16,073 bases of DNA, from positions 1 through 16,073 of IMG/VR virus record IMGVR_UViG_2667527592_000011; one strand, written 5' to 3'. Position 1 is the first letter of the stretch. Each line of letters begins with the position of its first letter. This DNA is from a virus. Taxonomy: Duplodnaviria; Heunggongvirae; Uroviricota; Caudoviricetes. Below are positions 1 to 14,028 of the stretch, piece by piece. The translations under genes and the position numbers were made by a program. The notes under the pieces are model-generated. The model ran no database searches. It was not told where the DNA came from and was given only the letters and a program-made list of their open reading frames with translations.

Positions 1-462
1 ATGCTGGGTGATTGTTTCCCTCCTGATTTTAAGGCTAATTTTAGTCGTGAAAGAGGTATATCACCCGGTGATGTATTGTATCTTCATTGTGATTTTACGA
101 CCCCACCTAAAGTAAAATATATGGTGGTTGTTTGCTGTGAACCTCTTTTAGTTCTTCTAATAAATTCAGATATAAATGAATTTATTAAGAGAAACAATGA
201 TCTTATGGCTTGTCAGGTCGAAATTAATAGAGAAGACCATGATTTTCTTAAATGGGACTCATTTGTTAATTGCATTGAGGCTCATGCTGCTTTCGATCTT
301 GAAATTATTAAAGAGAAAATAGCCATCCAATATGGTGACGTGCTAAAAGGTCGCATTACAGATCATTGTATGAGACAAGTTCGATGTGCAGTTGAGATAT
401 CTAAAACTATGGTTAAACGGCATAAAAAACTGATACTCGCTGCTCTTCAACATTATGAATAA
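1..462 (+). CDS. Hypothetical protein, AT-rich cargo gene (153 aa); may be 5'-truncated by the window edge
   Basis: ORF from ATG at position 1 to TAA at 460-462. Visibly AT-rich (about 35% GC by eye) against roughly 50% GC in neighbouring phage genes. Convergent with the leftward early operon and followed by a hairpin terminator. No family recognised; the N-terminal stretch RERGISPGDVLYLHCDF...KYMVVV only weakly recalls Kid/PemK/MazF-type N-termini (unverified). Confidence 0.5.
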   Translation: MLGDCFPPDFKANFSRERGISPGDVLYLHCDFTTPPKVKYMVVVCCEPLLVLLINSDINEFIKRNNDLMACQVEINREDHDFLKWDSFVNCIEAHAAFDLEIIKEKIAIQYGDVLKGRITDHCMRQVRCAVEISKTMVKRHKKLILAALQHYE

Positions 463-485
463 ACCCATCTTTGGATGGGTTTATT
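461..485. terminator. Bidirectional rho-independent-like terminator between convergent genes
   Basis: Perfect hairpin AAACCCATC (461-469) / GATGGGTTT (474-482) with a 4-nt loop, flanked by A/T-rich sequence on both sides; sits between the stop of the + strand gene and the stop of the - strand gene at 496. Confidence 0.5.
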
Positions 486-495
486 CATATTCTAT

Positions 496-768
496 TTAAA
501 TGAGCCTTTGTTTATGGGTTCTGACCCTTTCCCACTCAGCACGCCCTTCTTCTCGCCTTTTGTCTATGTATTCCGCAAGATCCTGAATATTGATGCAACG
601 TTTTGCTTTTTGTGATGTGCCGATGCGATATGTTGGAACGGGCAACTTACAAGCATTTGCTTTTGCCTCTGCCGTGGCTGGACTCATACCAAAGTACTTT
701 TGGCTAACTGCTGAGAGTTCAATGTTTGGGGTATTGAATTCAGCCATCAGTAAAAACAAGGTGTTCAT
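496..768 (-). CDS. Excisionase-like / PrtN-family DNA-binding protein (about 90 aa)
   Basis: Likely start is ATG at 768-766, preceded on the - strand by GGAG with a 6-nt spacer; the ORF track's longer form starts at a GTG at 795. Small basic protein (MNTLFLLMAEF...LPVPTYRIG...DLAEYIDKRR) at the distal end of the early-left operon, the usual xis position. Family assignment is from memory of PrtN/excisionase-like proteins. Confidence 0.5.
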   Translation of the reverse strand: MNTLFLLMAEFNTPNIELSAVSQKYFGMSPATAEAKANACKLPVPTYRIGTSQKAKRCINIQDLAEYIDKRREEGRAEWERVRTHKQRLI

Positions 769-804
769 AATTTTCTCCATCAAAACCGGCTGCACCCGGG
801 AAAA

Positions 805-1377
805 TCATAATTCTGTGCTGGTGGCAGGAATTAATTTCTGCCAGATAGCGGAAACATATTTTGCCTGATGACGGGCATCAGCCAGGGCGTTGTGCCGTTC
901 GCCATCGAAAGGCATGTCCATTTTGGGGTCGAATCCGATGGAACGCCCAAGCGTAACGATCGTGCGTACATCGTGGTCATTCCAGTATGCCCACGGGCAG
1001 ATTTGTCCTGCTCGCTCATAAGCTCCACGTAAAATTACGTTGTCGAAGGTGGCTCCGTTACCCCAGACTTTTAAATATTTCGTATTGTCTGCGTGCCGGT
1101 TAATGAAATGATTTAGTTCTGAGAGAGCATCGCTGATCGACAAAGTATCATCAATACAGATTGCAGCTCGTGCTTCAGGGCTTTGTTTCAACCACCACAG
1201 GATGGTATCGCCGTCAGGTGTAGCTCCTTGCACCATAGCACTTTCCAGGCTAACAACCGTATAGAATTCTTGTCCGATGTCTCCGGTTTCTGGAGTGAAG
1301 AACACCGCGCCAATGGAAACGATCGGTGCATCCTTATTTTTCCCCATCGTCTCAAGGTCGATCATTAAGTTGTTCAT
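805..1377 (-). CDS. DEDDh-family 3'-5' exonuclease (DnaQ-like, phage type)
   Basis: Exo I motif MIDLETMG (D-x-E) near the N-terminus and Exo III motif HNALADARH near the C-terminus. Start ATG at 1377-1375 overlaps the upstream stop (TGATG coupling). Confidence 0.75.
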   Translation of the reverse strand: MNNLMIDLETMGKNKDAPIVSIGAVFFTPETGDIGQEFYTVVSLESAMVQGATPDGDTILWWLKQSPEARAAICIDDTLSISDALSELNHFINRHADNTKYLKVWGNGATFDNVILRGAYERAGQICPWAYWNDHDVRTIVTLGRSIGFDPKMDMPFDGERHNALADARHQAKYVSAIWQKLIPATSTEL

Positions 1378-2111
1378 CACTTCACCTCCTGCGGCGGTTC
1401 CGGTAGCGGCATCCAGTGAGTTGCTTGCTCAATACCATTACCCGGCTTAATCGTTGCATCTCCGCGCCGAAAGGTGCTTCCGGTATAGCGTGCGGAGCAT
1501 ATTAGCGGTTCAACCAGAGAGCTATCGAAATTCACCGAAATAAGCACGTTCTGGCCCTTTTCAGGCATTCGATCACTACAGCTTATCCAACTATCCGGAG
1601 TTCCCGGAGAGTTGCCATTTACATCGAAGTTTGGCTCTGCGTCCTGAACCAAGAGGATGTAACCATTCTTGGCTGTATCAAGTTCTAACGCTTCGGTGAC
1701 GGTGCCGAAATAGCGATTACCTAAATCAGCATCACAAGTGCTTATATCAATGGAAACTTCCATGCCTTCGATTAATTCTGGCAAGTTGTAAGTTTGGCTT
1801 ACAGGTTGGCTACCCTGAAGCATGGCGGCGCGGTGACACCAGATAATCCAGCCAAGTGCCATATCCCATGCCATGTATTCTCTATCGCCATTTTTTGCCC
1901 TACGGCGATCTACAGATTCCCCGAAACGCTTCTCTATAAATAATTCATAGGCTGCTCGTTCATCCGATACTGCTGCCAGTGATGCCAGTGCAATTTTTAA
2001 TGCGGTAAGCATGTTGTTTTGATCTTCATCGAGTCCGAACGGTATTTCATCCCGTGCTGACTCAATGCTGGTAATCGTGTTCTGTAACCATTCTTTGGTA
2101 AGAGTATTCAT
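1377..2111 (-). CDS. Phage hypothetical protein with a DUF551-like C-terminal region
   Basis: 244-aa ORF; ATG at 2111-2109 preceded by AAGGTGA. C-terminal segment WISCSDRMPEKGQNVLI...HWMPLPEPP resembles the DUF551 signature (from memory). Confidence 0.55.
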   Translation of the reverse strand: MNTLTKEWLQNTITSIESARDEIPFGLDEDQNNMLTALKIALASLAAVSDERAAYELFIEKRFGESVDRRRAKNGDREYMAWDMALGWIIWCHRAAMLQGSQPVSQTYNLPELIEGMEVSIDISTCDADLGNRYFGTVTEALELDTAKNGYILLVQDAEPNFDVNGNSPGTPDSWISCSDRMPEKGQNVLISVNFDSSLVEPLICSARYTGSTFRRGDATIKPGNGIEQATHWMPLPEPPQEVK

Positions 2112-2113
2112 AA

Positions 2114-2305
2114 CTATTTCACCTTAATCTCAACATTTCGCAGCTTTAGCTCTACTGGCAAGTCTGACTTTCCTGTTAATGCTAATGCGAGATTTTCAGG
2201 AGTAATGAGAGCAGTTATTGTTTTCCCCATCGCCAGACGAATAATCATTCGTATCTCGCGATCGTCACATGCTCCCGGTCGAACAATTGATATTTGTCCG
2301 TTCAT
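2114..2305 (-). CDS. Small hypothetical protein (63 aa)
   Basis: ATG at 2305-2303 preceded by AGGAG; stop 2 nt before the next start; fits the tight coupling of the operon. The ORF-track version (2114-2386) extends upstream in the same frame without a ribosome-binding site. Confidence 0.4.
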   Translation of the reverse strand: MNGQISIVRPGACDDREIRMIIRLAMGKTITALITPENLALALTGKSDLPVELKLRNVEIKVK

Positions 2306-2306
2306 C

Positions 2307-2906
2307 TCACTCTCCTTTGATGCGAATGCCTGCGGCGCGTGGCACATTAACTTCCACGATGCGCACATTTGGTTTGTACATCTCAATCGCTGTCAGCCAG
2401 TCAGCGCCGGTCATATGCTTTTCTGCATCGCCATTAGTCCATTGAACCGGCACACCAATAGCTTTCATCGCAATTTCTATTTCCCCGGCAATGGCGCTTT
2501 TCCCGCAACCAGTAAAACCAGAGACAACGACAAGAACTTCGCCTTTGGCTGGTTTTATTTCCCGTGCTTCCAGTTCAGCAATACGCTTACTCCCATCCGA
2601 GATAACACCTTCGTAATACTCACGCTGCTCGTTGAGTTTTGATTTTGCTGCCTCCAGTTCGTCCAGTAGTGCAATCACATCAGGGTCACTGTCATCAACT
2701 ACTGTTACGCGTGATTTTTCATAATGCTCGTCGGCAAGTGTGCGACCAATTTTGAAATCTCCATCACCACCATAACTGGAGCAGGCATAAGTGACATGTG
2801 CTCCAGATATACGCTGTATTGACATTTCCTCGCCACAAACAGAGCATTCAGGTACTGGCTTAGGTGAATAACGTTCCCGTAGCGCCTGATAATCAATCTC
2901 GCTCAC
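2307..2906 (-). CDS. Hypothetical protein with an N-terminal Cys-rich (zinc-ribbon-like) segment and a C-terminal Walker-A-like motif
   Basis: GTG start at 2906-2904 overlaps the upstream TGA (GTGA) and is preceded by AAGGAGG. Residues CSVCGEE...YACSS and GFTGCGKS (G-x4-GKS). Possibly Ea22-like, unverified. Confidence 0.55.
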   Translation of the reverse strand: MSEIDYQALRERYSPKPVPECSVCGEEMSIQRISGAHVTYACSSYGGDGDFKIGRTLADEHYEKSRVTVVDDSDPDVIALLDELEAAKSKLNEQREYYEGVISDGSKRIAELEAREIKPAKGEVLVVVSGFTGCGKSAIAGEIEIAMKAIGVPVQWTNGDAEKHMTGADWLTAIEMYKPNVRIVEVNVPRAAGIRIKGE

Positions 2907-3388
2907 TGGTTGCCCTCCTTCATAAAAATAATCCAGTGGGTCTTGTCACCCTTTCCTGTTCGTTGACCGATAACAGGCTTTCTGTCGGTCAGTGCCAATA
3001 TCTGGCGAACAGGTATTTGCGTTTCATTCCATTTAAAAATCAGAACGCCGTATGGCCACAACACACGAAAGGCTTCTTTGAATCCTTGCCGTAAATCATC
3101 ACGCCGGGTATCTTTATTCAGCCGTCCATATTTCTTTCCCATCCAGGCGTTATCACCAACACGCTCAAGATGCGGAGGGTCGAATACAACCATCGAAAAG
3201 GATGCGTCTGCAAATGGTAGTGCACGAAAATCAGCTATCAGGTCAGGACTGATAATCAGGCGTCGTCCATCACACAATGTGTGCTCTTCCTTTCTGATAT
3301 CGCTAAATATCGCCCGGTCGTCATTCTTATCGAACCAGAACATGCGACTGCCACAGCACATGTCGAGGATTGCTGCATGTCCAGTCAC
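2903..3388 (-). CDS. Small putative DNA methyltransferase (YfdM-like)
   Basis: AdoMet-binding-like motif ILDMCCGS and catalytic-type motif VVFDPPH (DPP[YFH]). Preferred start is GTG at 3388-3386, preceded by AAGGAGG with a 7-nt spacer and overlapping the upstream TGA; an alternative ATG lies at 3421. Confidence 0.6.
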   Translation of the reverse strand: MTGHAAILDMCCGSRMFWFDKNDDRAIFSDIRKEEHTLCDGRRLIISPDLIADFRALPFADASFSMVVFDPPHLERVGDNAWMGKKYGRLNKDTRRDDLRQGFKEAFRVLWPYGVLIFKWNETQIPVRQILALTDRKPVIGQRTGKGDKTHWIIFMKEGNQ

Positions 3389-3927
3389 TGGCTGCCTCCT
3401 TTGCGAAGCCGTTCCGCCCATTCTTCAAGGGATTTCTCTGCATATTCACCGGACAGGCCATCAATCGGGTGCGGTTCATTAGCCAACTCTTCTTTCGCTG
3501 ACAGAATCATGCGCGTAACGTCGAAAACTTCACGTAAAGACTTATTGATAAATCCGTGGTTGAAAGCAGCAGCAAGACGGCTTGCGGTATAGTTAATCCC
3601 CTCGTTGCGCGCCTCCGCACGTATTTCAGCCAGGAAAGCGTCGGTGGCTGGCATATTTCCTGTTGCCTTCATGGCCTCCAAAATAACCAGAACGCCATCT
3701 CGCCCAACCTCCTCAGCGATAACCTCGGTGTTGTCGCCAACAACATCGCAGAATGCCTGAACCGCCTTACGAGCCAGTTCATTCTCCGCCGCAAGCGCCG
3801 AAATCTTAGCCTCCGCTTCAGCAAATTTACGCACCAGATACTCAGCATTTGTTTCATTCACTTTCAGATCTCGCGGTACACATTTCCCGCGAAGAAACCC
3901 TTCCATTTCGAAAACATTCATGCGCAT
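3385..3927 (-). CDS. Phage hypothetical protein (180 aa)
   Basis: ATG at 3927-3925 preceded by GGAG; translationally coupled on both sides; Ala/Glu-rich central segment suggests a coiled coil. No family recognised. Confidence 0.55.
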   Translation of the reverse strand: MRMNVFEMEGFLRGKCVPRDLKVNETNAEYLVRKFAEAEAKISALAAENELARKAVQAFCDVVGDNTEVIAEEVGRDGVLVILEAMKATGNMPATDAFLAEIRAEARNEGINYTASRLAAAFNHGFINKSLREVFDVTRMILSAKEELANEPHPIDGLSGEYAEKSLEEWAERLRKGGSQ

Positions 3928-4454
3928 TTGCGTAACTCCGATAACTCGTTAAAACGTTCCATAAACATCCCATAGGCATGGACTGGCGACAGTGGAATAA
4001 CTTTGAACATCTCTGTTGCCGGGATACCTTCCAGAACAGGCCAGAAAGAGCCATCATCAAGCCCGAGATCACGGCGTTCGGTTGCCAGCATAATGAGATC
4101 GGCATATTTCACTGGCGTGCTCATAACAGGAGGTAACCCGTATTTCTCACGGATTACGGCGTCTATTTTTTCTTCCATCCGTTTATAGTCAGGAAGAAGT
4201 CGTTTCAGTGGCGCGGGGATGTCCTGGCAATATGCTTCTGTTGCATCATGCATTAACGCTTCAAAAGCAAATTCCTGCGGCACCAGCTGGCTGCAAAGCA
4301 CCGCATGCTGGGCGACACTGTAGAAGTGTGAAAGATGTCCTGCAAAGCGACAGATATTTGAAAGGGAAACTGCGATATCGTTAATCACGATGTCGTCTTT
4401 ATTTATCTTGTCATAATAAAAATGCTTCCCGGAAAAAGTTTTAATAAATGACAT
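3918..4454 (-). CDS. HD-domain phosphohydrolase (YfdR-like 5'-deoxynucleotidase family), 178 aa
   Basis: HD signature: H in SVAQHAVLCSQL and HD in ALMHDATEAY. Preferred start ATG at 4454-4452 with GGAG 6 nt upstream; the ORF track's GTG at 4466 is less likely. Length matches YfdR of CPS-53 (from memory). Confidence 0.7.
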   Translation of the reverse strand: MSFIKTFSGKHFYYDKINKDDIVINDIAVSLSNICRFAGHLSHFYSVAQHAVLCSQLVPQEFAFEALMHDATEAYCQDIPAPLKRLLPDYKRMEEKIDAVIREKYGLPPVMSTPVKYADLIMLATERRDLGLDDGSFWPVLEGIPATEMFKVIPLSPVHAYGMFMERFNELSELRKCA

Positions 4455-4548
4455 TTCGTTCTCCACTTTATATGCGCTGCACCGCGCTGAATTCTGCTAA
4501 AAGGAAGCTCTCACCATCCGGTGATTATTGAGTTAATTACGTTTCCAT

Positions 4549-4570
4549 AAATGCCCCCGCAGGGGCATTT
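4549..4570 (-). promoter_or_regulatory. Intercistronic stem-loop just after the YfdQ-like stop (possible attenuator or RNA-stability element)
   Basis: Perfect 9-bp stem AAATGCCCC / GGGGCATTT with a 4-nt loop, 13 nt downstream of the stop at 4583-4585; only a short U-tract follows on the - strand transcript, so it is not a canonical terminator. Confidence 0.3.
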
Positions 4571-4582
4571 GCAGTAATGAAA

Positions 4583-5407
4583 TCAGGCGGTGAAAGTACC
4601 AATAAAGGTTTCTACTTTGCTGTCTTTGAATTTCTCAACAAGCAGATCACGAAATTCGTTAGCCATTTCTTCCTGCATCGCTTCCAGCTGAATAATGCGA
4701 AGAACCAGTACAGGACGATCGCCAGTGATAATGCTGAGGCGTAATTTAAACGGACGTTCTTTCAGGCCTTCAAACGGAACGCATTTAAATTCAAATGCCA
4801 CTGGCATAATGTCTTTGGTTTTCGCTTCGACAGACTCCATCAGAGAGCGTTTGCCGCTGAAGTCATTGTCTTCAAAATCAGCGGTCTGGTTTGCTTCAAT
4901 TGTGATTTTACGGACTGCCGCAGCCGCTTTGGTTGCCTGAATGGTGTCACCATTAGCATCAAAGCCCACAAGGTAGTCGGCCCAGTCTTCAATCCATTCT
5001 GCCAGTGACTTCTGGGAGTTACGCTCGCCATTAACAGACAACAGAGCAGAAAACGGTGCTGTCTTTTTCAGTTTGAGGGTGGCGGTGTTATCTGCGTGAC
5101 CTGGTTCATCAATAGTACCCAGGTTAAGCACACTGACGGCACGCATATTATCGGCATCGATAAAGCAGCGGGTGCCTTCATCTGCAAGATCTTTAGAATA
5201 ACGGGTAAAGTCATCGATGCTGGCAGTGGAAAGCGCACCACGGAAACGGAAGCGATTTAAATTAAATTTTTCCAGATCATGAATGCGGAAATTCTCAGGC
5301 AATGCCACTGCATCGGCACCAATCTTACTGATAATTTCATTAACACCCTGAGCAGAAATAAGGGCATGGATTTGATTAATTGCGGTTGCGTCTAAGTTCT
5401 GAGACAT
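4583..5407 (-). CDS. YfdQ-like protein (DUF2303 family), 274 aa
   Basis: ATG at 5407-5405 preceded by GAGGA; length and position next to YfdR-like and YfdP-like genes match CPS-53-type prophage order (from memory). Confidence 0.6.
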
Positions 5408-5472
5408 AATAAGTCCTCACTATATAAAGATATTCAGTGATGAGATAAATAATCAGTTTATTAATAACGATA

Positions 5473-5835
5473 TTAATGACCTGCTGCGCGTAGTTTTCCG
5501 TCAGGCTCACCGGCAAGAGTCAGTAATTGTCCCTGGTCTTCCTGCAGAATAGTCAGGCGACCACCGCGATTGACATACATCGGCGTTTCGGTGGTGTCTT
5601 CTTCGGAAATTTTCCCGCGGTTAGTCGGGCGAACATATGAGAGTTTGTGTTTGATTTTCACACGGTTCTCATCAAATGGTTCGATTTCCAGGTTGAGTGA
5701 GACCTTACCTTTGGTTTTCGTGTTCATCACACCGGAAGCGACTTCACTGAGAACTGCGCCGATTTTGGTTTCAAATACGCCGCCGTCCAGCTCCCCGATA
5801 AATGCCTGCACATCAGTACTGCGTTCGCTAGCCAT
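5473..5835 (-). CDS. YfdP-like hypothetical protein (120 aa), first gene of the leftward operon
   Basis: ATG at 5835-5833 preceded by AGGAG with an 8-nt spacer. The ORF-track version (5473-6021) extends upstream without a ribosome-binding site and is Cys/Arg-rich, so the shorter form is preferred. Confidence 0.55.
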   Translation of the reverse strand: MASERSTDVQAFIGELDGGVFETKIGAVLSEVASGVMNTKTKGKVSLNLEIEPFDENRVKIKHKLSYVRPTNRGKISEEDTTETPMYVNRGGRLTILQEDQGQLLTLAGEPDGKLRAAGH

Positions 5836-5884
5836 TTTGCTGCTCCTCATCATATCGACCCTGCAAGGTCGGTTGGTTTCTCCA

Positions 5885-5982
5885 CAAAACAGAGAAGAAC
5901 ACTTGCGGTGGCAGCCGCCCGGATGGATTGGGTTATCAGCTCGTCGTCCGGTGATGCTCTTCTCTGTTTTGTAAAAAGAGCG
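5885..5982 (-). promoter_or_regulatory. boxA-like motif followed by a long imperfect hairpin in the PL leader (candidate antitermination or termination RNA element)
   Basis: On the - strand transcript: CGCTCTTTTTA (reverse complement of 5972-5982), resembling lambda/rrn boxA, immediately followed by a 14-bp stem CAAAACAGAGAAGA / TCTTCTCTGTTTTG (5885-5898 with 5958-5971) enclosing a 59-nt loop with internal GCGG/CCGC and CCGGA/TCCGG pairings. Confidence 0.3.
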
Positions 5983-6176
5983 GTACCAGCCGGAAGCAAG
6001 TGTACAAACTGGTACCGCCAAAGCAGTGGCTGTTGTGGTGACCGGTGCTGATCTCCGGCATGCGGTTATTTCAGACTCTCACGGGCATTTAATTGCCCCG
6101 CCGAACAGCTCTTTTCCGCAATAGCTGCAATGTCTTTCGCGCATCAGCCTGCGCATTCACCACAACTCTAAAAACA

Positions 6177-6230
6177 AATGTAGGATATCCAACATGTGGG
6201 TGTCAAGAGTTTATGTTGGTTATCCTACAT
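6177..6230 (-). promoter_or_regulatory. OL/PL: leftward early promoter with overlapping operators
   Basis: On the - strand: TTGACA (reverse complement of 6201-6206), 17-nt spacer, CTACAT (reverse complement of 6178-6183). 18-bp operator ATGTAGGATATCCAACAT (6178-6195) overlaps the -10; a second copy ATGTTGGTTATCCTACAT lies at 6213-6230. Confidence 0.55.
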
Positions 6231-6246
6231 AAAAAGATAGGCTCAT

Positions 6247-6273
6247 AAAAAAAACCGGGGATACCCCGGTTTT
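6247..6273 (-). terminator. Rho-independent terminator downstream of the repressor gene
   Basis: CCGGGG-ata-CCCCGG hairpin (6255-6269) flanked by an A8 run (6247-6254) and a T4 run (6270-6273); on the - strand the stem is followed by nine U residues, about 20 nt after the cI-like stop. Confidence 0.6.
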
Positions 6274-6293
6274 GCGATAGTGAGGAAGATGTG

Positions 6294-6947
6294 TCAAAAA
6301 TCCATTATTACTTGTTTGACAAGACCAACTATTCTGCAGTTCTCACCGCATTCAATAGTTTTATAGTTAGGATTTAGTGGGACGAGATACCTGTTCGGCC
6401 AGTCCTCAACAAATTTTTTGAGTGTCGCTTCTTGCCCACCATTGATATGGGCAACAACGATTTTTCCGTTAATACACTCTGTATCAATAATATCTGGCTC
6501 TACGATAACGATAGAACCTTCTGGTATCGATGGTGAGCCGAGGGGATTGGTCATTGAATCACCACGGACCCGTAGTGCAAATGCCATTTCTGATACAAGG
6601 GCGGTAGTATAAACCCACTCTTCAGCATCTTCTTTCCTGACACCAGGCTCCGTCATTGTCCATGAACCCGCCTGAACCCACGAGATAAGGGGGACTTTTT
6701 TAACTGCGAATATTTCAGGTTTTAGATTTATCTTTGGTTCAGGCGAGCCTTTTCCGCTAACAAGCCACAGAGGATCGCATTTAAGTGCGTTGGCTAGGGC
6801 TTGAAGGTTGGCTCCATTTGGTTGGTAGTCGTCCTTTTCCCATCCAGTAACCGTGACGCGGTTCACACCAGTCAAATCAGCCAGTGCTTGTTGTGTCAGG
6901 TTCAGTTCTTTTCGCCTTTGGCGAATACGATCACTCATGTTCATCAT
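6294..6947 (-). CDS. cI: CI-like prophage repressor (HTH_XRE N-terminal domain + S24 LexA-like peptidase domain)
   Basis: N-terminal HTH (LTQQALADLTGVNRVTVTGWE); Ala-Gly cleavage-site candidate (WVQAGSW); catalytic Ser in RGDSM and Lys in ATLKKF. Divergent from a cro-like gene across the operators; no ribosome-binding site, possibly leaderless as for lambda cI from PRM. Confidence 0.85.
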   Translation of the reverse strand: MMNMSDRIRQRRKELNLTQQALADLTGVNRVTVTGWEKDDYQPNGANLQALANALKCDPLWLVSGKGSPEPKINLKPEIFAVKKVPLISWVQAGSWTMTEPGVRKEDAEEWVYTTALVSEMAFALRVRGDSMTNPLGSPSIPEGSIVIVEPDIIDTECINGKIVVAHINGGQEATLKKFVEDWPNRYLVPLNPNYKTIECGENCRIVGLVKQVIMDF

Positions 6948-7011
6948 GTAGGCAATCCTACCACATGCCCATGTAGGATTCTTGACATTGGTATGTTGGA
7001 TATCCTACATT
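6946..7011 (+). promoter_or_regulatory. OR/PR: rightward early promoter with three operator-like sites
   Basis: TTGACA (6982-6987), 17-nt spacer, CTACAT (7005-7010). Operators: ATGTTGGATATCCTACAT (6993-7010, over the -10), ATGTAGGATTCTTGACAT (6971-6988, over the -35) and a degenerate site ATGTAGGCAATCCTACCACAT (6946-6966) overlapping the cI start codon; spacing about 21-22 bp. Confidence 0.6.
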
Positions 7012-7042
7012 TCTGCTTAACGTAATTTAACGGGAGGCAGAA

Positions 7043-7240
7043 ATGCGGAAATCCGACGTGATTAATTATTTCGGCGGAGTTTGTAAAACCGCCGAAGCCC
7101 TAGGTATTAAGCATCCGTCTGTTTCAGAGTGGCCTGAGATTATTCCTGAAGGCCGAGCGTACCAGTTAGAAAAAATTACTAACGGGAAACTGAAAGTTGA
7201 CGTGTCTTTATATCAAAAGACTAACAGTGCTGCGGCATAA
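7043..7240 (+). CDS. cro: Cro-like repressor (P22 Cro family)
   Basis: 65 aa; GGGAGG 5 nt upstream of the ATG. MRKSDVINYFGG...ALGI...SVSEWPEIIPEGRAYQLEKITNGKLKV closely parallels P22 Cro (MYKKDVIDHFG...ALGISDAAVSQWKEVIPEKDAYRLEIVTAGALK, from memory). Divergent from the cI-like gene. Confidence 0.8.
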   Translation: MRKSDVINYFGGVCKTAEALGIKHPSVSEWPEIIPEGRAYQLEKITNGKLKVDVSLYQKTNSAAA

Positions 7241-7267
7241 AAACACCACAGAAATGAGGAATTAACC

Positions 7268-7852
7268 GTGGGTAAAGAACCTGAATGGAAAGTTGATAAA
7301 CAGCCAGCATGGCTGGTGGCAGCAATACGAAGAACGATTGCTGATTTACCTCATGGTTATGAGGAAGCAGCAGAAATTCTTGGTTTGTATAAATCTGATG
7401 ATATCACCCCAGCAAAAGATCAATTGCATAACAGACTGCGTAGCGGTGGGGATCAAATTTTTCCACTTGAGTGGGCCATGGTTTTACAGGATGCCAGTGG
7501 TACCAGGCATGTAACGGATGCAATAGCCCGTCGTAGTAATGGGGTGTTTGTGCCGCTGGTGGTCATTGATGACATTGACAATGGTGACATTAATCAGCGG
7601 CTGATGGAGTCAATAGAATGGATTGGCAAGCATTCCCAGTACTTACGCAAGGCAACTGCTGATGGAGTTATTGACCAGGCTGAGCGTGAGCAAATCGAAG
7701 AGAACAGCTACCAAGTAATGGCGAAGTGGCAGGAGCATTTAACACTGTTATTTCGTGTTTTTTGTGCGCCGGAAAAGAGTAACGCCCGCGAGTGTGCAGC
7801 TCCGGGCGTCGTGGCGTCGATTGCTTCTGGTTGTGGAGAAACTAACGCATGA
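7268..7852 (+). CDS. Hypothetical regulator at the cII position (possibly YmfL/CII-like)
   Basis: GTG start at 7268 preceded by GAGGA; 194-aa ORF immediately after cro. Family is inferred from position and recollection only; the C-terminal 35 residues are Cys/Ala-rich and of doubtful validity. Confidence 0.45.
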
Positions 7853-8187
7853 ACAGTTTAACAACACACTACCGTCGCTCGCAACTGATTGCGCTTCCTG
7901 TACCGGGTGGAAAAGCGAAGGTGGAGTATTGCTATGCAGTAAATGTACCAGGTGGCAGGGTAATTGTAACCCACAGCTTTGCAGAGTGGGCTGTGGGTGA
8001 TTTCAACCGGCAGAAGGAGACAGTCCTTTGCGACAAGTTAACCGCTGGTTCAAAGATCACTACGGAGTGCCCGTCAGAGTCATTCGTTGGGAGCCGGAAA
8101 CACAACGGGTTATCTACCTCCGCGAAGGTTATGAGCATGAATGCTTCAGTCCGCTCGAACAGTTTCGTCGTAAATTCAGGGAAATAG
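7849..8187 (+). CDS. YmfM-like protein (112 aa), possible SOS-associated cell-division inhibitor; 3' half has a competing reading frame
   Basis: ATG at 7849 overlapping the upstream stop (ATGA); length and position (after the cII-position gene, before the O-like gene) match e14 ymfM (from memory). The 3' third is Ser/Thr/Asn-rich low-complexity sequence, while another frame over 8001-8207 reads protein-like. Confidence 0.4.
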
Positions 8188-8196
8188 AGGTCGGTC

Positions 8197-9138
8197 ATGA
8201 GCACTAAATTAACCGGCTATGTATGGGATGGTTGCGCTGCATCAGGCATGAAGTTATCCAGCGTGGCAATTATGGCCCGCCTGGCTGATTTCAGTAATGA
8301 CGAAGGTGTGTGCTGGCCATCAATTGAAACCATTGCCCGTCAGATTGGCGCGGGGATGAGTACCGTCAGAACGGCTATCGCACGGCTGGAAGCAGAAGGC
8401 TGGTTAACGCGTAAGGCGCGTCGCCAGGGTAACCGCAATGCGTCGAATGTTTATCAGCTTAACGTTGCGAAGCTTCAGGCAGCGGCATTTTCTCAACTGT
8501 CAGATTCTGACCCGTCAAAATCTGACGCATCAAAATCTGACCCGTCAAAATTTGATGCGTCGAAATCTGGCAAAAAAGCGGGTTTTCACCCGTCAGAATC
8601 TGGCGGGGATCCGTCAGTAAAATCAAAACATGATCCGTCAGATAAAAAACCTTCTCGTCCGGACGCTTCGCAACCGGACACGCAGACGGCTGAACAGGAG
8701 TTTTTAACTCGCCATCCTGATGCGGTTGTATTCAGTCCTAAAAAGCGCCAGTGGGGAACGCAGGATGATTTGACCTGCGCACAGTGGCTCTGGAAAAAAA
8801 TCATCGCTCTGTACGAGCAGGCCGCTGAATGTGACGGCGAAGTGGTACGTCCTAAAGAACCGAACTGGACAGCCTGGGCAAACGAAATTCGCCTGATGTG
8901 TGTACAGGATGGGCGTACTCACAAACAAATCTGCGAGATGTACAGCCGCGTCAGCCGCGATCCGTTCTGGTGCCGTAACGTGCTCAGCCCGTCGAAGCTG
9001 CGGGAAAAATGGGATGAGCTTTCCCTGCGCTTATCGCCGTCCGTCAGCACGTACACAGAAAAACGCGAAGATCCGTACTTCAAAGCCAGTTACGACAATG
9101 TGGACTACAGCCAGATCCCGGCAGGATTCAGGGGGTGA
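8197..9138 (+). CDS. Replication initiation protein, O-like (N-terminal winged-helix DNA-binding domain, iteron-encoding repeat linker)
   Basis: GAGG 7 nt upstream of the ATG. N-terminal HTH region (SVAIMARLADFSNDEGVCWPSIETIARQIGAGMSTVRTAIARLEAEGWL); central repeat PSKSD/ASKSD/PSKFD/ASKSG encoded by 15-bp direct repeats; follows the cro, cII-position and ymfM-like genes as oweE does in e14. Confidence 0.7.
   Translation: MSTKLTGYVWDGCAASGMKLSSVAIMARLADFSNDEGVCWPSIETIARQIGAGMSTVRTAIARLEAEGWLTRKARRQGNRNASNVYQLNVAKLQAAAFSQLSDSDPSKSDASKSDPSKFDASKSGKKAGFHPSESGGDPSVKSKHDPSDKKPSRPDASQPDTQTAEQEFLTRHPDAVVFSPKKRQWGTQDDLTCAQWLWKKIIALYEQAAECDGEVVRPKEPNWTAWANEIRLMCVQDGRTHKQICEMYSRVSRDPFWCRNVLSPSKLREKWDELSLRLSPSVSTYTEKREDPYFKASYDNVDYSQIPAGFRG
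8514..8650 (+). repeat. Iteron-like direct repeats inside the O-like gene (candidate phage replication origin)
   Basis: Four tandem 15-bp units CCGTCAAAATCTGAC / GCATCAAAATCTGAC / CCGTCAAAATTTGAT / GCGTCGAAATCTGGC (8514-8573), further CCGTCAG-containing copies to about 8643, then an A-rich tract GATAAAAAACC. Confidence 0.55.
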
Positions 9139-9140
9139 TT

Positions 9141-9629
9141 ATGAGTCTTTTGAATGAAGTTCAGAAATTCATTGAAGCCCATCCGGGGTGTACTTCCGGA
9201 GACATTGCGGATGCTTTGGCAGGTTACTCACGGCAGCGCGTTCTGCAGTCAGCAAGCAAGTTACGTCAGAGTGGGCGTGTGGCTCACCGTTGTGAAGGAG
9301 ATACACGCAGACATTTCCCACGCCTGACTGAGAGAGCGCAGGAGCCGGAACCACAACCAGTTCGTGAAACCAGACCTGTGCGCAATTTCTATGTCGGCAC
9401 TAACGATCCCCGGGTGATTTTGTGCCTGACCCGCCAGGCTGAAGAACTGGAGTCAAGGGGCTTATACCGTCGTGCTGCAACGGTGTGGATGGCGGCATTC
9501 CGTGAAAGCCACTCCCAGCCAGAACGAAACAATTTTCTGGCGCGTCGTGAGCAGTGTTTACGGAAAAGCAGCAAGCGTGCTGTATCGGGTGATGAGTGGT
9601 ATCTGTCAGGGAATTACGTGGGGGCTTAA
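9141..9629 (+). CDS. PerC/Pch-family transcriptional regulator homolog with an N-terminal winged-helix-like extension
   Basis: Preferred start ATG at 9141 (GGGGGTGA upstream); the ORF track starts at a GTG at 9135. C-terminal signature GLYRRAATVWMAAF...FLARREQCL resembles the PerC motif GLWRRAA..W...RR..C (from memory). Confidence 0.55.
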   Translation: MSLLNEVQKFIEAHPGCTSGDIADALAGYSRQRVLQSASKLRQSGRVAHRCEGDTRRHFPRLTERAQEPEPQPVRETRPVRNFYVGTNDPRVILCLTRQAEELESRGLYRRAATVWMAAFRESHSQPERNNFLARREQCLRKSSKRAVSGDEWYLSGNYVGA

Positions 9630-10282
9630 TGAGTAATAAATATTGCCAGGAGCTGGTGGAACTGCGGAACAAACCAGCCCATGAACTGAAGGAAGTGGGC
9701 GATCAGTGGCGCACGCCGGACAACATTTTCTGGGGAATTAACACCCTGTTTGGCCCGTTTGTTCTGGATCTGTTCACTGACGGTGATAACGCCAAATGTG
9801 CTGCGTATTACACGGCGGAAGACAACGCGCTGGCGCATGACTGGTCAGAACGTCTTGCGGAGCTTAAAGGTGCTGCCTTTGGTAATCCCCCATACAGCCG
9901 CGCCAGTCAGCATGAGGGGCAATACATCACTGGCATGCGTTACATCATGAAGCATGCCAGTGCCATGCGTGATAAGGGCGGGCGCTATGTTTTCCTGATC
10001 AAAGCTGCCACCAGCGAAGTGTGGTGGCCGGAAGATGCGGACCATATTGCTTTTATTCGCGGGCGTATTGGTTTTGAACTGCCTGTCTGGTTTATCCCGA
10101 AAGACGAGAAGCAGGTACCGACAGGCGCTTTCTTCGCTGGTGCTATTGCTGTTTTCGACAAGACCTGGAAGGGACCGGCAATCAGCTACATCGGGCGCGA
10201 TGAACTTGAGGCATGTGGTGAGGCGTTTTTGGCGCAGGTTCGCCAGCAGGCAGAAAAACTTGTCAGGGAGATGGCGGCATGA
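9629..10282 (+). CDS. Phage Dam-type DNA N6-adenine methyltransferase
   Basis: Catalytic motif FGNPPYS (NPPY). ATG at 9629 overlaps the upstream TAA (TAATG); the ORF-track extension from 9596 has no ribosome-binding site. 217 aa. Confidence 0.75.
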   Translation: MSNKYCQELVELRNKPAHELKEVGDQWRTPDNIFWGINTLFGPFVLDLFTDGDNAKCAAYYTAEDNALAHDWSERLAELKGAAFGNPPYSRASQHEGQYITGMRYIMKHASAMRDKGGRYVFLIKAATSEVWWPEDADHIAFIRGRIGFELPVWFIPKDEKQVPTGAFFAGAIAVFDKTWKGPAISYIGRDELEACGEAFLAQVRQQAEKLVREMAA

Positions 10283-10605
10283 CGACGTTAACTCAATGCC
10301 AGCAGCAGGTGCTGGATATGCTGATTTCTTACCAGCAAGAGCGTGGCTTTCCGCCAACCAATCAGGAGGTGGCAACCATGCTGGGATACCGTTCAGTGAA
10401 TGCAGCGGTGGAGCATCTTCGCGCACTGGAGAAAAAAGGCGTCATCACGATAAAGCGTGGCGTGGCCCGGGGGATCACGCTTCATACCGCAGTGAAGGAC
10501 GACGACAGCGAAGCGGTCGGTATCATCCGCGCACTGCTTGCCGGTGAGGAGAACGCTAGGTTGCGTGCAGCCCACTGGTTACATGAGAGGGGCCTGAAAG
10601 TATGA
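10279..10605 (+). CDS. LexA DNA-binding-domain-only protein (no S24 peptidase domain)
   Basis: LTQCQQQVLDMLISYQQERGFPPTNQEVATMLGYRSVNAAVEHLRALEKKGVITIKRGVARGITL parallels the E. coli LexA N-terminus ([65 protein letters not shown], from memory). Only 108 aa, so the cleavage site and Ser/Lys dyad are absent. ATGA overlaps on both sides. Confidence 0.7.
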   Translation: MTTLTQCQQQVLDMLISYQQERGFPPTNQEVATMLGYRSVNAAVEHLRALEKKGVITIKRGVARGITLHTAVKDDDSEAVGIIRALLAGEENARLRAAHWLHERGLKV

Positions 10606-10991
10606 AGTTGATCCTTCCTTTCCCGCCCAGTGTGAACACGTACTGGCGACACCCCAACAAAGGGGCATTTGCTGGTAAGAGCCTGATAAGCGAGGTGGGG
10701 CGAAAATTTCAGAGCGCGGCGTGCGCAGCAATAGTTGAGCAGTTACGTCGTCTGCCGAAACCAACGTCGGCACCTGCTTCAGTGGAGATCGTGTTGTTTC
10801 CGCCGGATAACCGGATCCGTGATCTGGACAACTATAACAAGGCGCTGTTTGACGCCCTGACCCACGCGGGTGTGTGGGAAGACGACAGACAGGTGAAAAG
10901 AATGCTGGTGGAGTGGGGACCGGTTATCCCGAAAGGGAAGGTCGAGATCACTATCAGTAAGTACGAGAAAACGGCGGGTGCAGCCGCCTGA
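10602..10991 (+). CDS. rusA: RusA-family Holliday junction resolvase
   Basis: 129 aa; PFPPSVNTYWRH and DLDNYNKALFDALTHAGVWEDDRQV match the RusA signature (PWPPSNNRYYRH, DLDN...FDALT); GAGAGGGG upstream of the ATG. Confidence 0.85.
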   Translation: MKLILPFPPSVNTYWRHPNKGAFAGKSLISEVGRKFQSAACAAIVEQLRRLPKPTSAPASVEIVLFPPDNRIRDLDNYNKALFDALTHAGVWEDDRQVKRMLVEWGPVIPKGKVEITISKYEKTAGAAA

Positions 10992-11010
10992 TTAAGAGGA
11001 GAAACGAAGT

Positions 11011-11820
11011 ATGAATAATCTGATGGTCATTGATGGTATTGAAGTTCGTCGTGATGCTTATGGGCGTTACAGCCTGAACGATCTGCATCGCGCAGCAGTA
11101 GCATCTGGTGCAAATGCCAGAACCAAGGAGCCAGGAAAGTTTCTTTCCAGCCAACAAACTGTTGAGCTTGTTCATGAATTGACCAACACCCAGAATTTGG
11201 GTGTTGACCCGGTGAGTGTGATTCATGGGGGAAATGAACGGGGAACGTATGTCTGCAAGGAACTGGTGTATGCCTATGCAATGTGGATCAGCCCGTCATT
11301 CCATCTGAAGGTGATCCGTACTTTCGATATGGTAACCAGCGCACCGGAAAAATTATCCGGGCAGGCTGCTGACAAGATGCAGGCTGGTGTGATTCTGCTG
11401 GACTTTATGCGCAGGGAGTTAAACCTGTCTAACTCATCAGTGCTTGGTGCCTGTCAGAAACTCCAGGAGGCTGTTGGCTTACCGAATCTGGCACCGCGCT
11501 ATGCTATTGATGCTCCTGCTGACGCGCCTGATGGCTCAAGTCGCCCCACGCTGTCGCTGAGTGCACTGCTGAAACAGTATGGTATCCGCCTTACGGCTAA
11601 TCAGGCATATCACCAGATGGTGAAGCTGGGGATCGTCGAGCAGCGCGAACGATACAGCCGTACCGCGATTAACAACATCAAAAAATTCTGGTCGCTGACA
11701 GCGAAAGGCTGCATGTTCGGCAAGAACATCACCAGTCCCGCAAATCCGCGCGAGACGCAGCCGCATTTCTTCGAATCCCGATTCCCTGAGCTGTTAAAGC
11801 TGCTCGATACCGTTCATTGA
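11011..11820 (+). CDS. KilA-N domain protein
   Basis: Strong ribosome-binding site AAGAGGAG; N-terminal KilA-N-like region (VIDGIEVRRDAYGRYSLNDLHRA...VIHGGNERGTYVCKELVYAYAMWISPSFHLKVI). Confidence 0.65.
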   Translation: MNNLMVIDGIEVRRDAYGRYSLNDLHRAAVASGANARTKEPGKFLSSQQTVELVHELTNTQNLGVDPVSVIHGGNERGTYVCKELVYAYAMWISPSFHLKVIRTFDMVTSAPEKLSGQAADKMQAGVILLDFMRRELNLSNSSVLGACQKLQEAVGLPNLAPRYAIDAPADAPDGSSRPTLSLSALLKQYGIRLTANQAYHQMVKLGIVEQRERYSRTAINNIKKFWSLTAKGCMFGKNITSPANPRETQPHFFESRFPELLKLLDTVH

Positions 11821-11821
11821 G

Positions 11822-12817
11822 GTGACTGTGAGAGCACTACTGACCCCTGAAATTGCCCCGCGTATGGGGATCGTATTGTTCAGACCTGGTTCAGAGCTGA
11901 TGCCCCTGTTTATGCAGGGGCGTGTCCTGCTGGAGCCTGAGCCGGAACGTTATTCATCTTTTGCCAGTGGTGCCGTTCCGGCGGCATCACAACCGCTGGC
12001 GGATGATCCTGTCGTTCGGGCCGTGTTCCGCAATGAGGCAGTGATCCGTCGTGCTGGTGGCGTGGAATGTCTTGAAAGCTGGTTACTTCGTGAAAAGGGC
12101 TGTCAGTGGCCTCATTCCGACTGGTACAGCGAGAACATTACCACAATGCGACACGCTCCGGGCGCAATCCGTCTGTGCTGGCACTGCGATAACCAGCTGC
12201 GCGATCAGTTCACGGAACGGCTGGAATCAATGGCAACGGATAACTGTGCCCGCTGGGTGTTGTCTGTTGTGCGTCGGGATCTCGGTTTTGATGATAGTCA
12301 CGTTGTGACAATGCCGGAACTGTGCTGGTGGCTGATTCGTCATGATCTGGCGGATGCCTTACCGGAAAGTGCAGCCCGTAAGGCACTGAGATTACCAAAG
12401 CCTGTTGTGCCGTCTGTCACCCGGGAAAGTGACCTTGTGCCTTCGGTTCCTGCCACCAGCATCATCCAGGATAAGGCAAAAAAGGTGCTGGCGCTGAAAG
12501 TGGATCCGGAGTCGCCGGAGTCTTTTATGTTACGCCCAAAACGTCGCCGCTGGGTTAATGAAAAGTACACGCGCTGGGTTAAGACGCAGCCGTGTGCATG
12601 TTGTGGAAAGCCTGCTGATGATCCCCACCACCTGATAGGTCACGGTCAGGGTGGAATGGCTACAAAAGCGCATGACCTCTTTGTGTTGCCTTTGTGCAGA
12701 AAGCATCACGACGAGCTGCATGCGGATACCGTGGCATTTGAAGAGAAGTATGGCTCCCAGCTGGAGCTGATATTTCGTTTTATCGATCGTGCGCTGGCAA
12801 TAGGCGTGCTGGCCTGA
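11822..12817 (+). CDS. DUF968 / NinG-like protein with a C-terminal HNH-type Cys/His motif (YdfU-like)
   Basis: C-terminal CACCGKP...DPHHLIGHGQGG...LPLCRKHHDELH; sits directly upstream of Q as ydfU does in Qin (from memory). Start is uncertain: GTG at 11822 or 11828. Confidence 0.6.
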   Translation: MTVRALLTPEIAPRMGIVLFRPGSELMPLFMQGRVLLEPEPERYSSFASGAVPAASQPLADDPVVRAVFRNEAVIRRAGGVECLESWLLREKGCQWPHSDWYSENITTMRHAPGAIRLCWHCDNQLRDQFTERLESMATDNCARWVLSVVRRDLGFDDSHVVTMPELCWWLIRHDLADALPESAARKALRLPKPVVPSVTRESDLVPSVPATSIIQDKAKKVLALKVDPESPESFMLRPKRRRWVNEKYTRWVKTQPCACCGKPADDPHHLIGHGQGGMATKAHDLFVLPLCRKHHDELHADTVAFEEKYGSQLELIFRFIDRALAIGVLA

Positions 12818-12834
12818 TTTTGTGGAGAAAGTTG

Positions 12835-13206
12835 ATGCGTGATATTCAAATGGTTCTTGAACGTTGGGGGGCATGGGTGGCAAATAATCACGAGGATGTG
12901 GAATGGTCATCTGTTGCTGCAGGTTTTAAGGGATTAATTCCTTCGAAAGTAAAATCCCGCCCGCAATGTAGCGATGACGATGGCCTGATCATTAGCTCTG
13001 CGATGACAGTTCTTAAGAAAAAGGAACCGTATCAATACGAATTACTGGAAATGTATTATGTGTATGGGGTTACATTACGGGCGTTGGGGGTAAAACTGGG
13101 GATATCACTTAATCAGGTTGTTATCAGACTGCAGAAAGCTGAAGGGTTTATTGACGGTTGTCTGGCAATGTTGGGGGTATCTTTAGAAATTGATTGTTAC
13201 ATATAG
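12835..13206 (+). CDS. Q-type late-gene antiterminator (phage 21 / DLP12 QuuD-like family)
   Basis: ATG at 12835 with GGAG 8 nt upstream; N-terminus MRDIQMVLERWGAW...SKVKSRPQC...RLQKAEGFIDG parallels QuuD-type Q proteins (from memory). The ORF track's TTG at 12820 is less likely. Confidence 0.7.
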   Translation: MRDIQMVLERWGAWVANNHEDVEWSSVAAGFKGLIPSKVKSRPQCSDDDGLIISSAMTVLKKKEPYQYELLEMYYVYGVTLRALGVKLGISLNQVVIRLQKAEGFIDGCLAMLGVSLEIDCYI

Positions 13207-13281
13207 TAATAAATTCAATCAAAGTAAATAATCATATTTTATTATAACCTCCTGATGATACCTGTTCATTGGGAGGTTATT

Positions 13282-13899: not shown

Positions 13900-14028
13900 T
13901 TTTATGTTTGGTATTCAGAGTTCGCCGTGCTTAAGAAAGTCAAGATTCTAAAAATACTGAATGAGCTACTTGTGTTATAACAAAAATGCTATTAGTGTGT
14001 TAAGAGTGGTTACTTCGCCACACAACTT

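Follow-up and report, generated by a model that had tools for sequence, protein, structure and literature searches.

How do lambdoid phages without N run their early transcription, and does the RNA made at the entry to their leftward operon have a part in it? We address this question for the leader of the leftward early promoter PL in a stretch of 16,073 nucleotides (IMG/VR record IMGVR_UViG_2667527592_000011, positions 1 to 16,073; the window, below, means this whole stretch), which is an N-less lambdoid prophage of the SfV/ST64B/mEp460/CPS-53 type (E. coli). A first-pass annotation had proposed that this leader carries a boxA-like motif directly followed by a long hairpin and that no N-like gene is present, and had offered as readings an RNA-based antitermination device of the HK022 put type, a NusB/NusE-dependent boxA system, or a regulated terminator. 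We find that the leader holds an unnamed, very widespread and covariation-supported RNA, here called SL2, joined to a module of the dicF/STnc100 type. The conserved leader RNA, the terminator and the N-less phage of the earlier interpretation thereby stand, whereas boxA and membership of the put family were rejected by the tests described below.

A modular leader RNA downstream of PL

On the minus strand the PL leader has four modules, namely a multi-hairpin 5' domain (6166-6032), a hairpin (SL1) with a run of five U residues (U5), SL2, and a further hairpin (SL3), as follows:

6206-6177, minus strand: PL promoter (-35 TTGACA at 6206-6201, 18-nt spacer, -10 TACATT at 6182-6177; 10/12 consensus matches)
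6032-6166, minus strand: 5' leader domain, with several hairpins by fold prediction
5979-6019, minus strand: SL1, a predicted 13-bp G+C-rich hairpin (6019-6007 with 5991-5979) with a 15-nt loop
5881-5975, minus strand: SL2, a three-way junction, from folding and covariation
5975-5954 with 5902-5881, minus strand: P1 of SL2, 22 contiguous pairs
5951-5947 with 5923-5919, minus strand: P2 of SL2, CCGGA with UCCGG
5942-5940 with 5932-5930, minus strand: P2a of SL2, with loop 5939-5933
5918-5915 with 5908-5905, minus strand: P3 of SL2, GCGG with CCGC
5872-5883, minus strand: conserved stretch GGAGAAACCAAC, at and just after the 3' end of SL2, with 5883-5881 pairing at the base of P1
5856-5871, minus strand: SL3, the hairpin CGACC[UUGCAG]GGUCG

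The hexamers of the rightward promoter PR (6982-7011) are identical to those of PL, and the operator TGTAGGATANCCAACA lies around both promoters (6179-6194 and 6214-6229 at PL; 6994-7009 and 6947-6962 at PR), with seven matches found versus 0.29 expected by chance. The PL transcript would start near 6170. The full leader of 337 nt folds with z = -4.9. The comparison began from divergent relatives (ST64B, Citrobacter phiNP, Klebsiella Kp4866-6, Salmonella 118970_sal3, LLS and SfV); pattern scans added more than 250 further leader loci, and alignment of the relatives reveals the same modular build of 5' domain, SL1, SL2, conserved stretch and SL3. Longer leaders (L016, phiNP and ST64B) contain a second upstream set consisting of a terminator-like hairpin and a long hairpin; the window leader is among the shortest because its junction with the immunity region falls inside the 3' arm of that upstream hairpin, at GTTGTGG.

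The first gene after the leader is either yfdP-like or one of several unrelated small genes, and homologues of yfdP and yfdQ are found downstream in 93 of the 141 loci with enough sequence on that side. Since the first gene varies, and yfdP/yfdQ were not found downstream in about one third of these loci, the leader belongs to the operon and not to yfdP. No protein was found to be a constant partner of SL2; the best candidate, a CII-like protein (CP76), is present at 138 of 162 loci, an association that is uninformative given that this protein is of the lysogeny activator type and is not universal.

SL2 is a conserved three-way junction on the minus strand

Folding and covariation, two of the checks that had been proposed, both bear out the expectation that the PL leader of this lambdoid prophage without N makes an RNA that is conserved and extensively structured. 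A 141-nt segment of the minus-strand transcript folds at -63.7 kcal/mol, compared to -38.4 +/- 4.0 kcal/mol in shuffled sequences (z = -6.3; none of 200 shuffles was as good). The long stem-loop placed after the boxA-like motif therefore exists, with two inner helices inside a stem of 22 contiguous pairs where 14 had been given. The family consensus of the core is CGACGGGCUCAUAACCCAAUCCA. Covariation was assessed on 60 distinct aligned SL2 sequences with a hand-drawn three-way junction (P1, P2, P2a and P3). Over its 34 pairs, 97.1% of 2040 cells are paired, and nine pairs are changed on both sides, giving 97 such cells versus 32.1 +/- 3.7 in shuffles (0/500 reach this number); when the partner columns were slid as a control, at most 21 compensatory cells were obtained. 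Examples include C-G to A-U (31:23), G-C to C-G (41:19) and, in P2, G-C to A-U (33:18). RNAalifold also recovers the long stem from the 60 sequences, with five compensatory pairs. SL2 is assigned to the PL transcript because G-U pairs are frequent on the minus strand and the SL2 model R1 scores 105.5 bits on that strand of the window versus 37.4 bits on the plus strand. A full-sensitivity search with the model finds no second copy of SL2 in the 16-kb window. We conclude that the minus strand encodes SL2 as a genuine, conserved RNA structure.

The strand preference bears directly on the idea that the inverted repeat acts as DNA (by forming a cruciform, by binding a protein as a palindrome or by serving as a recombination linker), or that it belongs to a plus-strand gene. 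Module boundaries between relatives do lie inside hairpin arms, as at the window/immunity junction at GTTGTGG, and some records annotate open reading frames (ORFs) across the region (mEp460 gp36 on the plus strand). The many minus-strand G-U pairs would be C-A mismatches on the other strand, however, the scores differ as given above, a three-way junction with asymmetric conserved loops is not palindromic, and half of the variants have in-frame stops, so that we consider a DNA-level or plus-strand role extremely unlikely. A coding reading of SL1-SL2 was likewise discarded, given in-frame stops in half of 152 variants and compensatory changes that fit RNA pairing.

The yfdP frame is open upstream through SL2 and SL1 (5473-6021 on the minus strand of the window, 182 codons from TTG; also 1095-1628 of L007), and the extended coding sequence is annotated in at least one deposited record (sal3). 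Small plus-strand ORFs are annotated over the hairpins elsewhere (mEp460 gp36, Ayreon). All of these ORF annotations look like artefacts on structured RNA.

Distribution of SL2 and variation of its core

Of 5426 complete E. coli genomes, 2459 carry the 71-nt centre of SL2, at 3243 places in all, and no annotated feature underlies it in any of the 38 E. coli matches listed. A species-level genome scan places SL2 in at least 15 genera of Enterobacterales, with scores of 98-120 bits in most of Escherichia, Shigella, Citrobacter, Enterobacter, Kosakonia, Mixta, Buttiauxella, Leclercia, Phytobacter, Pseudescherichia, Pseudocitrobacter, Erwinia and Klebsiella; only a partial match was obtained in Raoultella (35.8 bits) and a divergent one in Pantoea (46.9 bits). 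Rfam has no SL2 family, as judged by scans of the entire window at the gathering threshold and of 5750-6300 under permissive settings, and a full-text literature search for the core sequence found no paper. Model searches of K-12 CPS-53, Qin and HK022 gave no full SL2; in K-12 CPS-53, replication-origin repeats lie next to yfdP in place of SL2.

The pattern first used for collecting relatives fixed the core, and sequences were therefore recollected by the 3' arm alone to check core conservation. In this second collection the exact core GACGGGCUCAUNACCCNAUCC is present in 74 of 138 sequences and different in the other 64. Variants include the common GGGCUCAUUCCCC, as well as GGGUUCAUAACCC, GGGCCCAUAACCC and GUGCCCUAACAC, the last of which keeps pairing by GUG/CAC. 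The window copy itself differs from the consensus at 5941 (G to A), 5937 (C to G) and 5903 (G to A), and the 71-mer identical to it occurs at just one of the 3243 E. coli places (strain NY1601). Two of its substitutions fall in the near-invariant core (GGG to GAG, and CAU to GAU in the loop). The window copy of SL2 may be decaying.

The same 21-nt core was also found in three other settings:

L157 4880-4981, minus strand: core element in a Pantoea prophage, between Q and holin, after a terminator
L147 3023-3098, plus strand: core element in a Raoultella prophage, between Q and holin, after a terminator
L146 about 2547-2636, minus strand: core element in an Acidobacteriaceae metagenome-assembled genome, directly upstream of a ribosome-binding site

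In the Pantoea and Raoultella prophages the core is carried by three-way junctions with entirely different helix sequences, and in the Acidobacteriaceae genome by a hairpin of two helices that lacks the third arm. By chance, about four matches to the core pattern would be expected in the database searched, but chance would not nest the core motif inside perfect stems. SL2 stands directly after a terminator in almost every variant examined, late leaders included, and the few exceptions look rearranged.

The boxA-like letters are the tail of a predicted terminator

Directly upstream of the long hairpin lies SL1, which the first-pass annotation had overlooked. The 3' arm of SL1 ends ...GGUACCGCU and is followed by one C and then by U5 (5977-5973), which is the arrangement of an intrinsic terminator, a G+C-rich hairpin leading directly into a U-run. 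A simple terminator scan, with its loop limit of 8 nt, had passed over it. A hairpin with a T-run folds at this position in all 45 displayed variants, which were drawn from 110 distinct variants extracted by their T-run, despite different stem sequences (GGCGGUACCAG, GUCGGCGUCCGG, GGCGGCAUC, GCCCAUC, CUGGCGGCCCGG and others). On the basis of the likeness to dicF described below, we infer that SL1 and U5 form a DicF-type intrinsic terminator.

The motif CGCTCTTTTTA is present as described at 5982-5972 on the minus strand. Its letters, however, are those of the paired 3' shoulder of SL1 together with the U-tract: CGCUCUUUUUA (5972-5982, minus strand) consists of the end of the SL1 3' arm (CG, C, U), the C, U5 and an A. 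Of 152 distinct variants, only 41 have CCGCTC as the hexamer preceding the T-run, and the others have CCGCCC, CCGTCC, CCAGCC, CCGCAC or further sequences; this shoulder co-varies with the SL1 5' arm among relatives, and all that is conserved at the site is the U-run followed by ACA. Lack of conservation of the hairpin or of the motif in related prophages had been named as grounds for refutation; the hairpin is conserved and the motif varies.

The rrn boxA consensus is UGCUCUUUAACAA, and the letters CGCUCUUUUUACAA in the window are similar to it, which is the point in favour of an rrn-type or lambda nut-type antitermination site for NusB-NusE. Against such a site, boxA acts through a single-stranded core (GCUCUUUA / CGCUCUU(U)A), and here CGCUC is paired in SL1 and the shoulder is variable; in addition, there is neither a second site in the PR operon nor an N gene. 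A boxA working with boxB and an N-type protein, with sites in both early operons, was also rejected, given no N-family match among the larger ORFs scanned between PL and Q, the 27-nt gap after cro and the lack of a second SL2. The boxA reading is effectively refuted by the comparative data already, and we attach next to no probability to it. The proposal of a regulated terminator comes closest to the truth in that a terminator is involved, but this terminator is the hairpin before the U-run and not the long hairpin that had been described. A candidate ops/RfaH site read from GGCGGTACCAG in SL1 was dropped since it is not conserved.

Kinship of the leader with dicF and STnc100

The leader region is collinear with dicF of the K-12 Qin prophage. 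SL1 and K-12 dicF have in common UUUGGCGGUAYCAGUUU...CCGCYCUUUUU, and the 3' half of DicF, UUUGGCGGUAUCAGUUUU...CCGCCCUUUUU, matches UUUGGCGGUACCAGUUU...CCGCUCUUUUU in the window. Upstream, the Qin sequence GGUUGUGGCAA...CGCUGCAAC is clearly homologous to the Ayreon domain over the aligned stretch, and DicF follows it. As in the leader, Qin dicF lies downstream of a PL-like, repressor-controlled promoter; a domain closed by GUUGUGG...C(A/U)(C/G)CAAC precedes a hairpin and T-run; and long hairpins with similar arms flank the modules, one of these hairpins being an RNase III site in Qin. The window therefore has the elements of a DicF-type module, namely a GGCGG...CCGCC hairpin with a U-run, a preceding structured domain and a PL-type operon. 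There are also differences. At the place of the DicF 5' seed UUUCUGGUGACG, which pairs with ftsZ and other targets, the window has AGCCACUGC, and SL1 obtains no Rfam DicF score (no match at E up to 10 in 5750-6300); Qin has no SL2, and three small genes precede its dicF, whereas in the window the module lies right at PL. Taken together, these comparisons indicate that SL1 of the window is a relative of the dicF module and not a dicF gene.

Relatives were also compared with Rfam in a permissive scan, for which the gathering scores are 47 for STnc100 (RF02076) and 48 for DicF (RF00039). The SfV 5' domain with its terminator matches the full length of STnc100 at 39.5 bits and ST64B at 35.1 bits, both under the gathering score, and the best relative for DicF is L097, with 29.6 bits over SL1, again under the gathering score. 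The window has no STnc100 match, its own 5' domain having a different inner sequence, and the STnc100/PasD model (RF02076) does not cover SL2. STnc100 has been described as prophage-encoded and widespread near Q genes (bioRxiv 10.64898/2026.05.13.724894).

The 5' domain of the window is closed by a 9-bp stem, GUUGUGGUG (6166-6158) with CACCACAAC (6040-6032). Relatives have the same closing stem, GUUGUGG(UG)/(CA)CCACAAC, with wholly different interiors between phages, and the position of the domain is that of the 190-nt DicF precursor body in Qin and of STnc100-like or tRNA-like domains in relatives. Scored as tRNA, the 5' domain reaches 43.9 bits in L103 and 29.5 bits in L097 (gathering score 29), with a 64-nt insert in the anticodon arm. 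These two domains (L103 1077-1203 and L097 4364-4488, both on the minus strand) have a canonical D-arm and T-arm, the insert contains GGUUCAUAACC, and ARAGORN makes no tRNA call on either. A T-loop-like GGUUCGAUUCC is seen in other leaders.

In K-12 Qin, immediately after dicF and before dicB, comes a second domain of the STnc100-like kind (L132 2940-3085, UGUGGUGAAUGCGGCUGAGCGCACGCGG...CCUGGAGGCACCAGGCAC), which is closed by a stem of about 20 bp, GUGAAUUUUGUGAUGUGGUG/...CAUCACAAAAUUCA. The presence of this second domain beside dicF is a reason to think that modules are shuffled among prophages.

A proposed order of events on the leader transcript

DicF is cut from the PL-like dicBp transcript, with RNase III generating the 5' end of a 190-nt species and RNase E the 53-nt form (bioRxiv 10.1101/2023.04.14.536235). 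Counting 190 nt back from the DicF 3' end leads to the 3' arm of the long hairpin in Qin (L132 2673-2758). This arm resembles the 3' arm of SL2 P1 by eye, and the Qin hairpin gives a weak match to model R1 (13.4 bits, E = 0.06). RNase III acts on about two turns of near-perfect double-stranded RNA (at least 20 bp), and P1 offers 22 pairs and is 98% paired in the 60 sequences.

We therefore suggest the following sequence of events. Transcription from PL, beginning near 6170, would make the multi-hairpin domain and then the terminator formed by SL1 and U5. The product released by polymerases stopped there would be about 195 nt long, collinear with the 190-nt DicF species of Qin and its counterpart. 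Polymerases that read through would transcribe SL2, the basal stem of which begins inside the U-tract. On the read-through RNA, SL2 would serve as a processing and expression element: by analogy with the related Qin hairpin, RNase III probably cuts the long stem, and this cut would separate the small-RNA-like leader from the yfdP-yfdQ mRNA and set the 5' end of the latter. The conserved inner core of SL2 may bind a factor. Taken as a whole, the reading of a terminator followed by a processing and expression element for read-through transcripts is one on which we regard the case for and against as evenly balanced.

Several points weigh against it. The loop of SL1 is unusually large (at least 15 nt) and is followed by only five U residues, and SL1 of the window has neither the DicF seed region nor any Rfam DicF score. 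The assignment of the Qin RNase III cut to the long-hairpin arm derives from the 190-nt length. Published K-12 RNase III maps are silent on SL2 because K-12 lacks it. Moreover, processing alone cannot explain the conservation, since a plain RNase III site needs neither a three-way junction nor a near-invariant 21-nt core.

The leader of lambda N provides a further comparison. In lambda, a long hairpin lies between PL and the first leftward gene, and an RNase III site occurs in the N leader together with nutL. The window is similar in having a long hairpin between PL and the first gene of the leftward operon, but it has no N gene, no boxA-boxB pair and no sequence similarity to the lambda leader, and the branched core conserved in SL2 would be superfluous in a hairpin that served for processing only.

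Early operons without N, and the question of antitermination

The genes and signals that bear on antitermination are as follows:

6294-6947, minus strand: LexA-type cI repressor, from the gene list and family scan
6273-6251: cI terminator
7043-7240, plus strand: P22-type cro
7268-7852: CII-like CP76 protein
12820-13206: Q antiterminator (PF06530)
5473-5835, minus strand: yfdP-like protein of 120 aa, not arginine-rich, the first PL-operon gene
4583-5407: yfdQ (DUF2303), after the yfdP-like gene
3918-4466: HD-type 5'-deoxynucleotidase, after yfdQ
4549-4570, minus strand: hairpin AAAUGCCC[CUGCGG]GGGCAUUU with a weak U-tract, after the yfdQ stop codon

The gene for CP76 is followed by those for an O-like replication protein, RusA and others. 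Because the gene order runs cI, cro, CP76, O-like, RusA and Q, both early operons lie inside the window and the stretch from cro to Q is complete. Phages with about 99% identity to 5400-7300 of the window by megablast are Stx2c-converting phages and phage Lys8385Vzw, and the left part of the same segment is matched in mEp460, SfV, SfII, SfIV, cdtI, Ayreon and others. The phage family has been reported to lack N in the SfIV paper (PMC3851460) and in the phage LLS paper, which speculated on a put-like mechanism (PMC12315714). Consistent with these reports, a scan of the larger early-region ORFs, from PL through Q, gives no match to the N family, and the interval from PL to the first leftward gene is free of N-like genes. 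The claim that the leader has no N-like arginine-rich ORF holds as regards the N family, but two short arginine-rich ORFs of 24-25 codons do lie near its 5' end. Both overlie the 5' domain (6163-6079, minus strand) and read MRRLMRERHCSYCGKELFGGAIKCP from the ATG at 6156 and VVNAQADARKTLQLLRKRAVRRGN from the GTG at 6163; they are probably not genes because they have no convincing ribosome-binding site and the sequence is unrelated in other leader types. The first-pass annotation was right that there is no room for a nutR after cro, given that only 27 nt separate the end of cro (7240) from the next gene start (7268).

For put, we built a covariance model (R2) from six putL and ten putR sequences, which scores HK022 putR at 97.9 bits and putL at 77 bits as controls. 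In the window, ST64B, phiNP, SfV, L016 and LLS its best match has 8.3 bits (E = 1.3) and lies at 7501-7597, outside the leader, so that the suggestion of the HK022 put type fails as a statement of family membership; put-like function is weighed separately here. The leader resembles put in being a cis-encoded structured RNA just downstream of an early promoter in an N-less lambdoid phage. The HK022 put RNA acts in cis on the beta' zinc-binding domain of RNA polymerase to carry transcription past terminators. In HK022, however, put consists of two stem-loops of about 35 nt each (about 70 nt) and occurs once per early operon, whereas SL2 is a three-way junction of 95-130 nt that follows a terminator and is present once in a window with both early operons, and no sequence or structure similarity links putL or putR to the leader.

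SL2 might nonetheless represent a new class of cis-acting processive antiterminator RNA, put-like but unrelated, that would modify RNA polymerase and so allow it to read past the terminators of the PL operon. In favour of this, SL2 is located where a long operon begins, in phages whose family has been reported to lack N; near-invariant unpaired nucleotides within covarying helices are suited to docking on a protein surface; SL2 is kept whichever gene comes next; and a terminator-like hairpin follows yfdQ. This last hairpin (4549-4570) is a possible internal terminator of the PL operon, and the Ayreon record has a terminator annotated in the gap just downstream of its yfdQ homologue. Yet SL2 is not a put homologue, it is present once and without a counterpart in the PR operon even though cro to Q is wholly in the window, and it stands after, not before, the promoter-proximal terminator. 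In two prophages, moreover, the same core lies between Q and holin, where Q already antiterminates, and few convincing terminators are seen downstream in the window. On balance we view an antiterminator function as unlikely, though worth bearing in mind.

Likeness of the SL2 core to initiator tRNA

The SL2 consensus CGACGGGCUCAUAACCC agrees with K-12 metZ at 16 of 17 positions, 14 of them consecutive. This exact 14-nt run, CGGGCUCAUAACCC, belongs to the anticodon stem-loop of tRNA-fMet (metZ/W/V and metY), and takes in both the loop CUCAUAA and the three G-C pairs by which initiator tRNA is distinguished. SL2 itself is not a tRNA: it has no tRNA score, keeps three of the stem pairs and is often changed in the 3' half of the loop. 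ARAGORN finds no tRNA in the window or in ten loci, and 5750-6300 has no Rfam tRNA match.

It is conceivable that the core mimics the anticodon arm of initiator tRNA-fMet and, being made early from PL, binds or titrates a host factor. That factor could be methionyl-tRNA synthetase, the 30S P site together with IF3, or a toxin of the VapC type that cuts tRNA-fMet. The last of these has some appeal, since the anticodon stem-loop of tRNA-fMet is cut by VapC toxins from Salmonella and Shigella (PMC7180214). Apart from the metZ match, the hairpin forms the tip of a scaffold that covaries, and it persists when all helices are replaced, and other modules of these leaders are tRNA-like. The core differs, however, in 64 of the 138 relatives collected without using it; the common variant GGGCUCAUUCCCC has U and C at the positions equivalent to A37 and A38, and other variants alter the "anticodon". 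Only three of the five anticodon-stem pairs are kept, and the window copy has GAG for GGG and GAU for CAU. The resemblance was noticed after the fact, and we judge mimicry of this kind to be improbable. The metZ match, together with the tRNA-like 5' domains of relatives, suggests either tRNA ancestry or mimicry. If mimicry did operate, the tip of SL2, among the first transcripts, would act as a decoy for a factor such as a VapC toxin that aborts infection by cutting tRNA-fMet, and the elements with this core in the leaders of late genes would serve the same end.

The 3' end of the leader and other features of the window

The stretch after SL2 reads GGAGAAAC(U/C)AAC or GGAGAAA in the alignments. 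SL3 follows, just upstream of the Shine-Dalgarno sequence GAGGAG (5848-5843) and the ATG at 5835-5833. In relatives the (U/G)GCAG loop of SL3 is kept and its stem sequence is changed, even where the first gene is different. Pairing of the CUCAU loop with AUGAG at the start of the first gene was considered and dropped, as it fits only some first genes. A hairpin closely similar to SL3 of the window and of relatives (GGCGGUUGCAGCCGCC) occurs at 10973-10988 on the plus strand (GGCGG[GUGCAG]CCGCC), with GAGAAAAC before it and a Shine-Dalgarno sequence and a gene start at 11011 after it, and a similar one occurs at 4570-4549. Such hairpins may be recurring gene-boundary hairpins or recombination linkers.

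Iteron-like palindromic repeats (GATTTTGACG.../GATTTTGATGCGTC) at 8516-8569, inside the O-like replication gene, are the same as those adjoining yfdP in K-12 CPS-53 and are probably a replication origin. In the leftmost part of the PL operon, at 454-489, a perfect 16-bp hairpin with T-runs on both sides looks like a two-way terminator.

Implications

With the boxA-like letters identified as a terminator tail, and put absent, two tempting but wrong annotations are removed from this locus. What stands in their place is an RNA without an Rfam family that almost half of complete E. coli genomes carry, at the entry to the early-left operon of the SfV/ST64B/mEp460 lambdoid group, which includes Stx2-converting and serotype-converting phages. 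The link to dicF and STnc100 suggests a single modular system, of which these prophage small RNAs and leaders would be reshuffled versions. SL2 bears on how these phages run early transcription without N, and a covariation-backed structure with exact coordinates makes this question directly testable.

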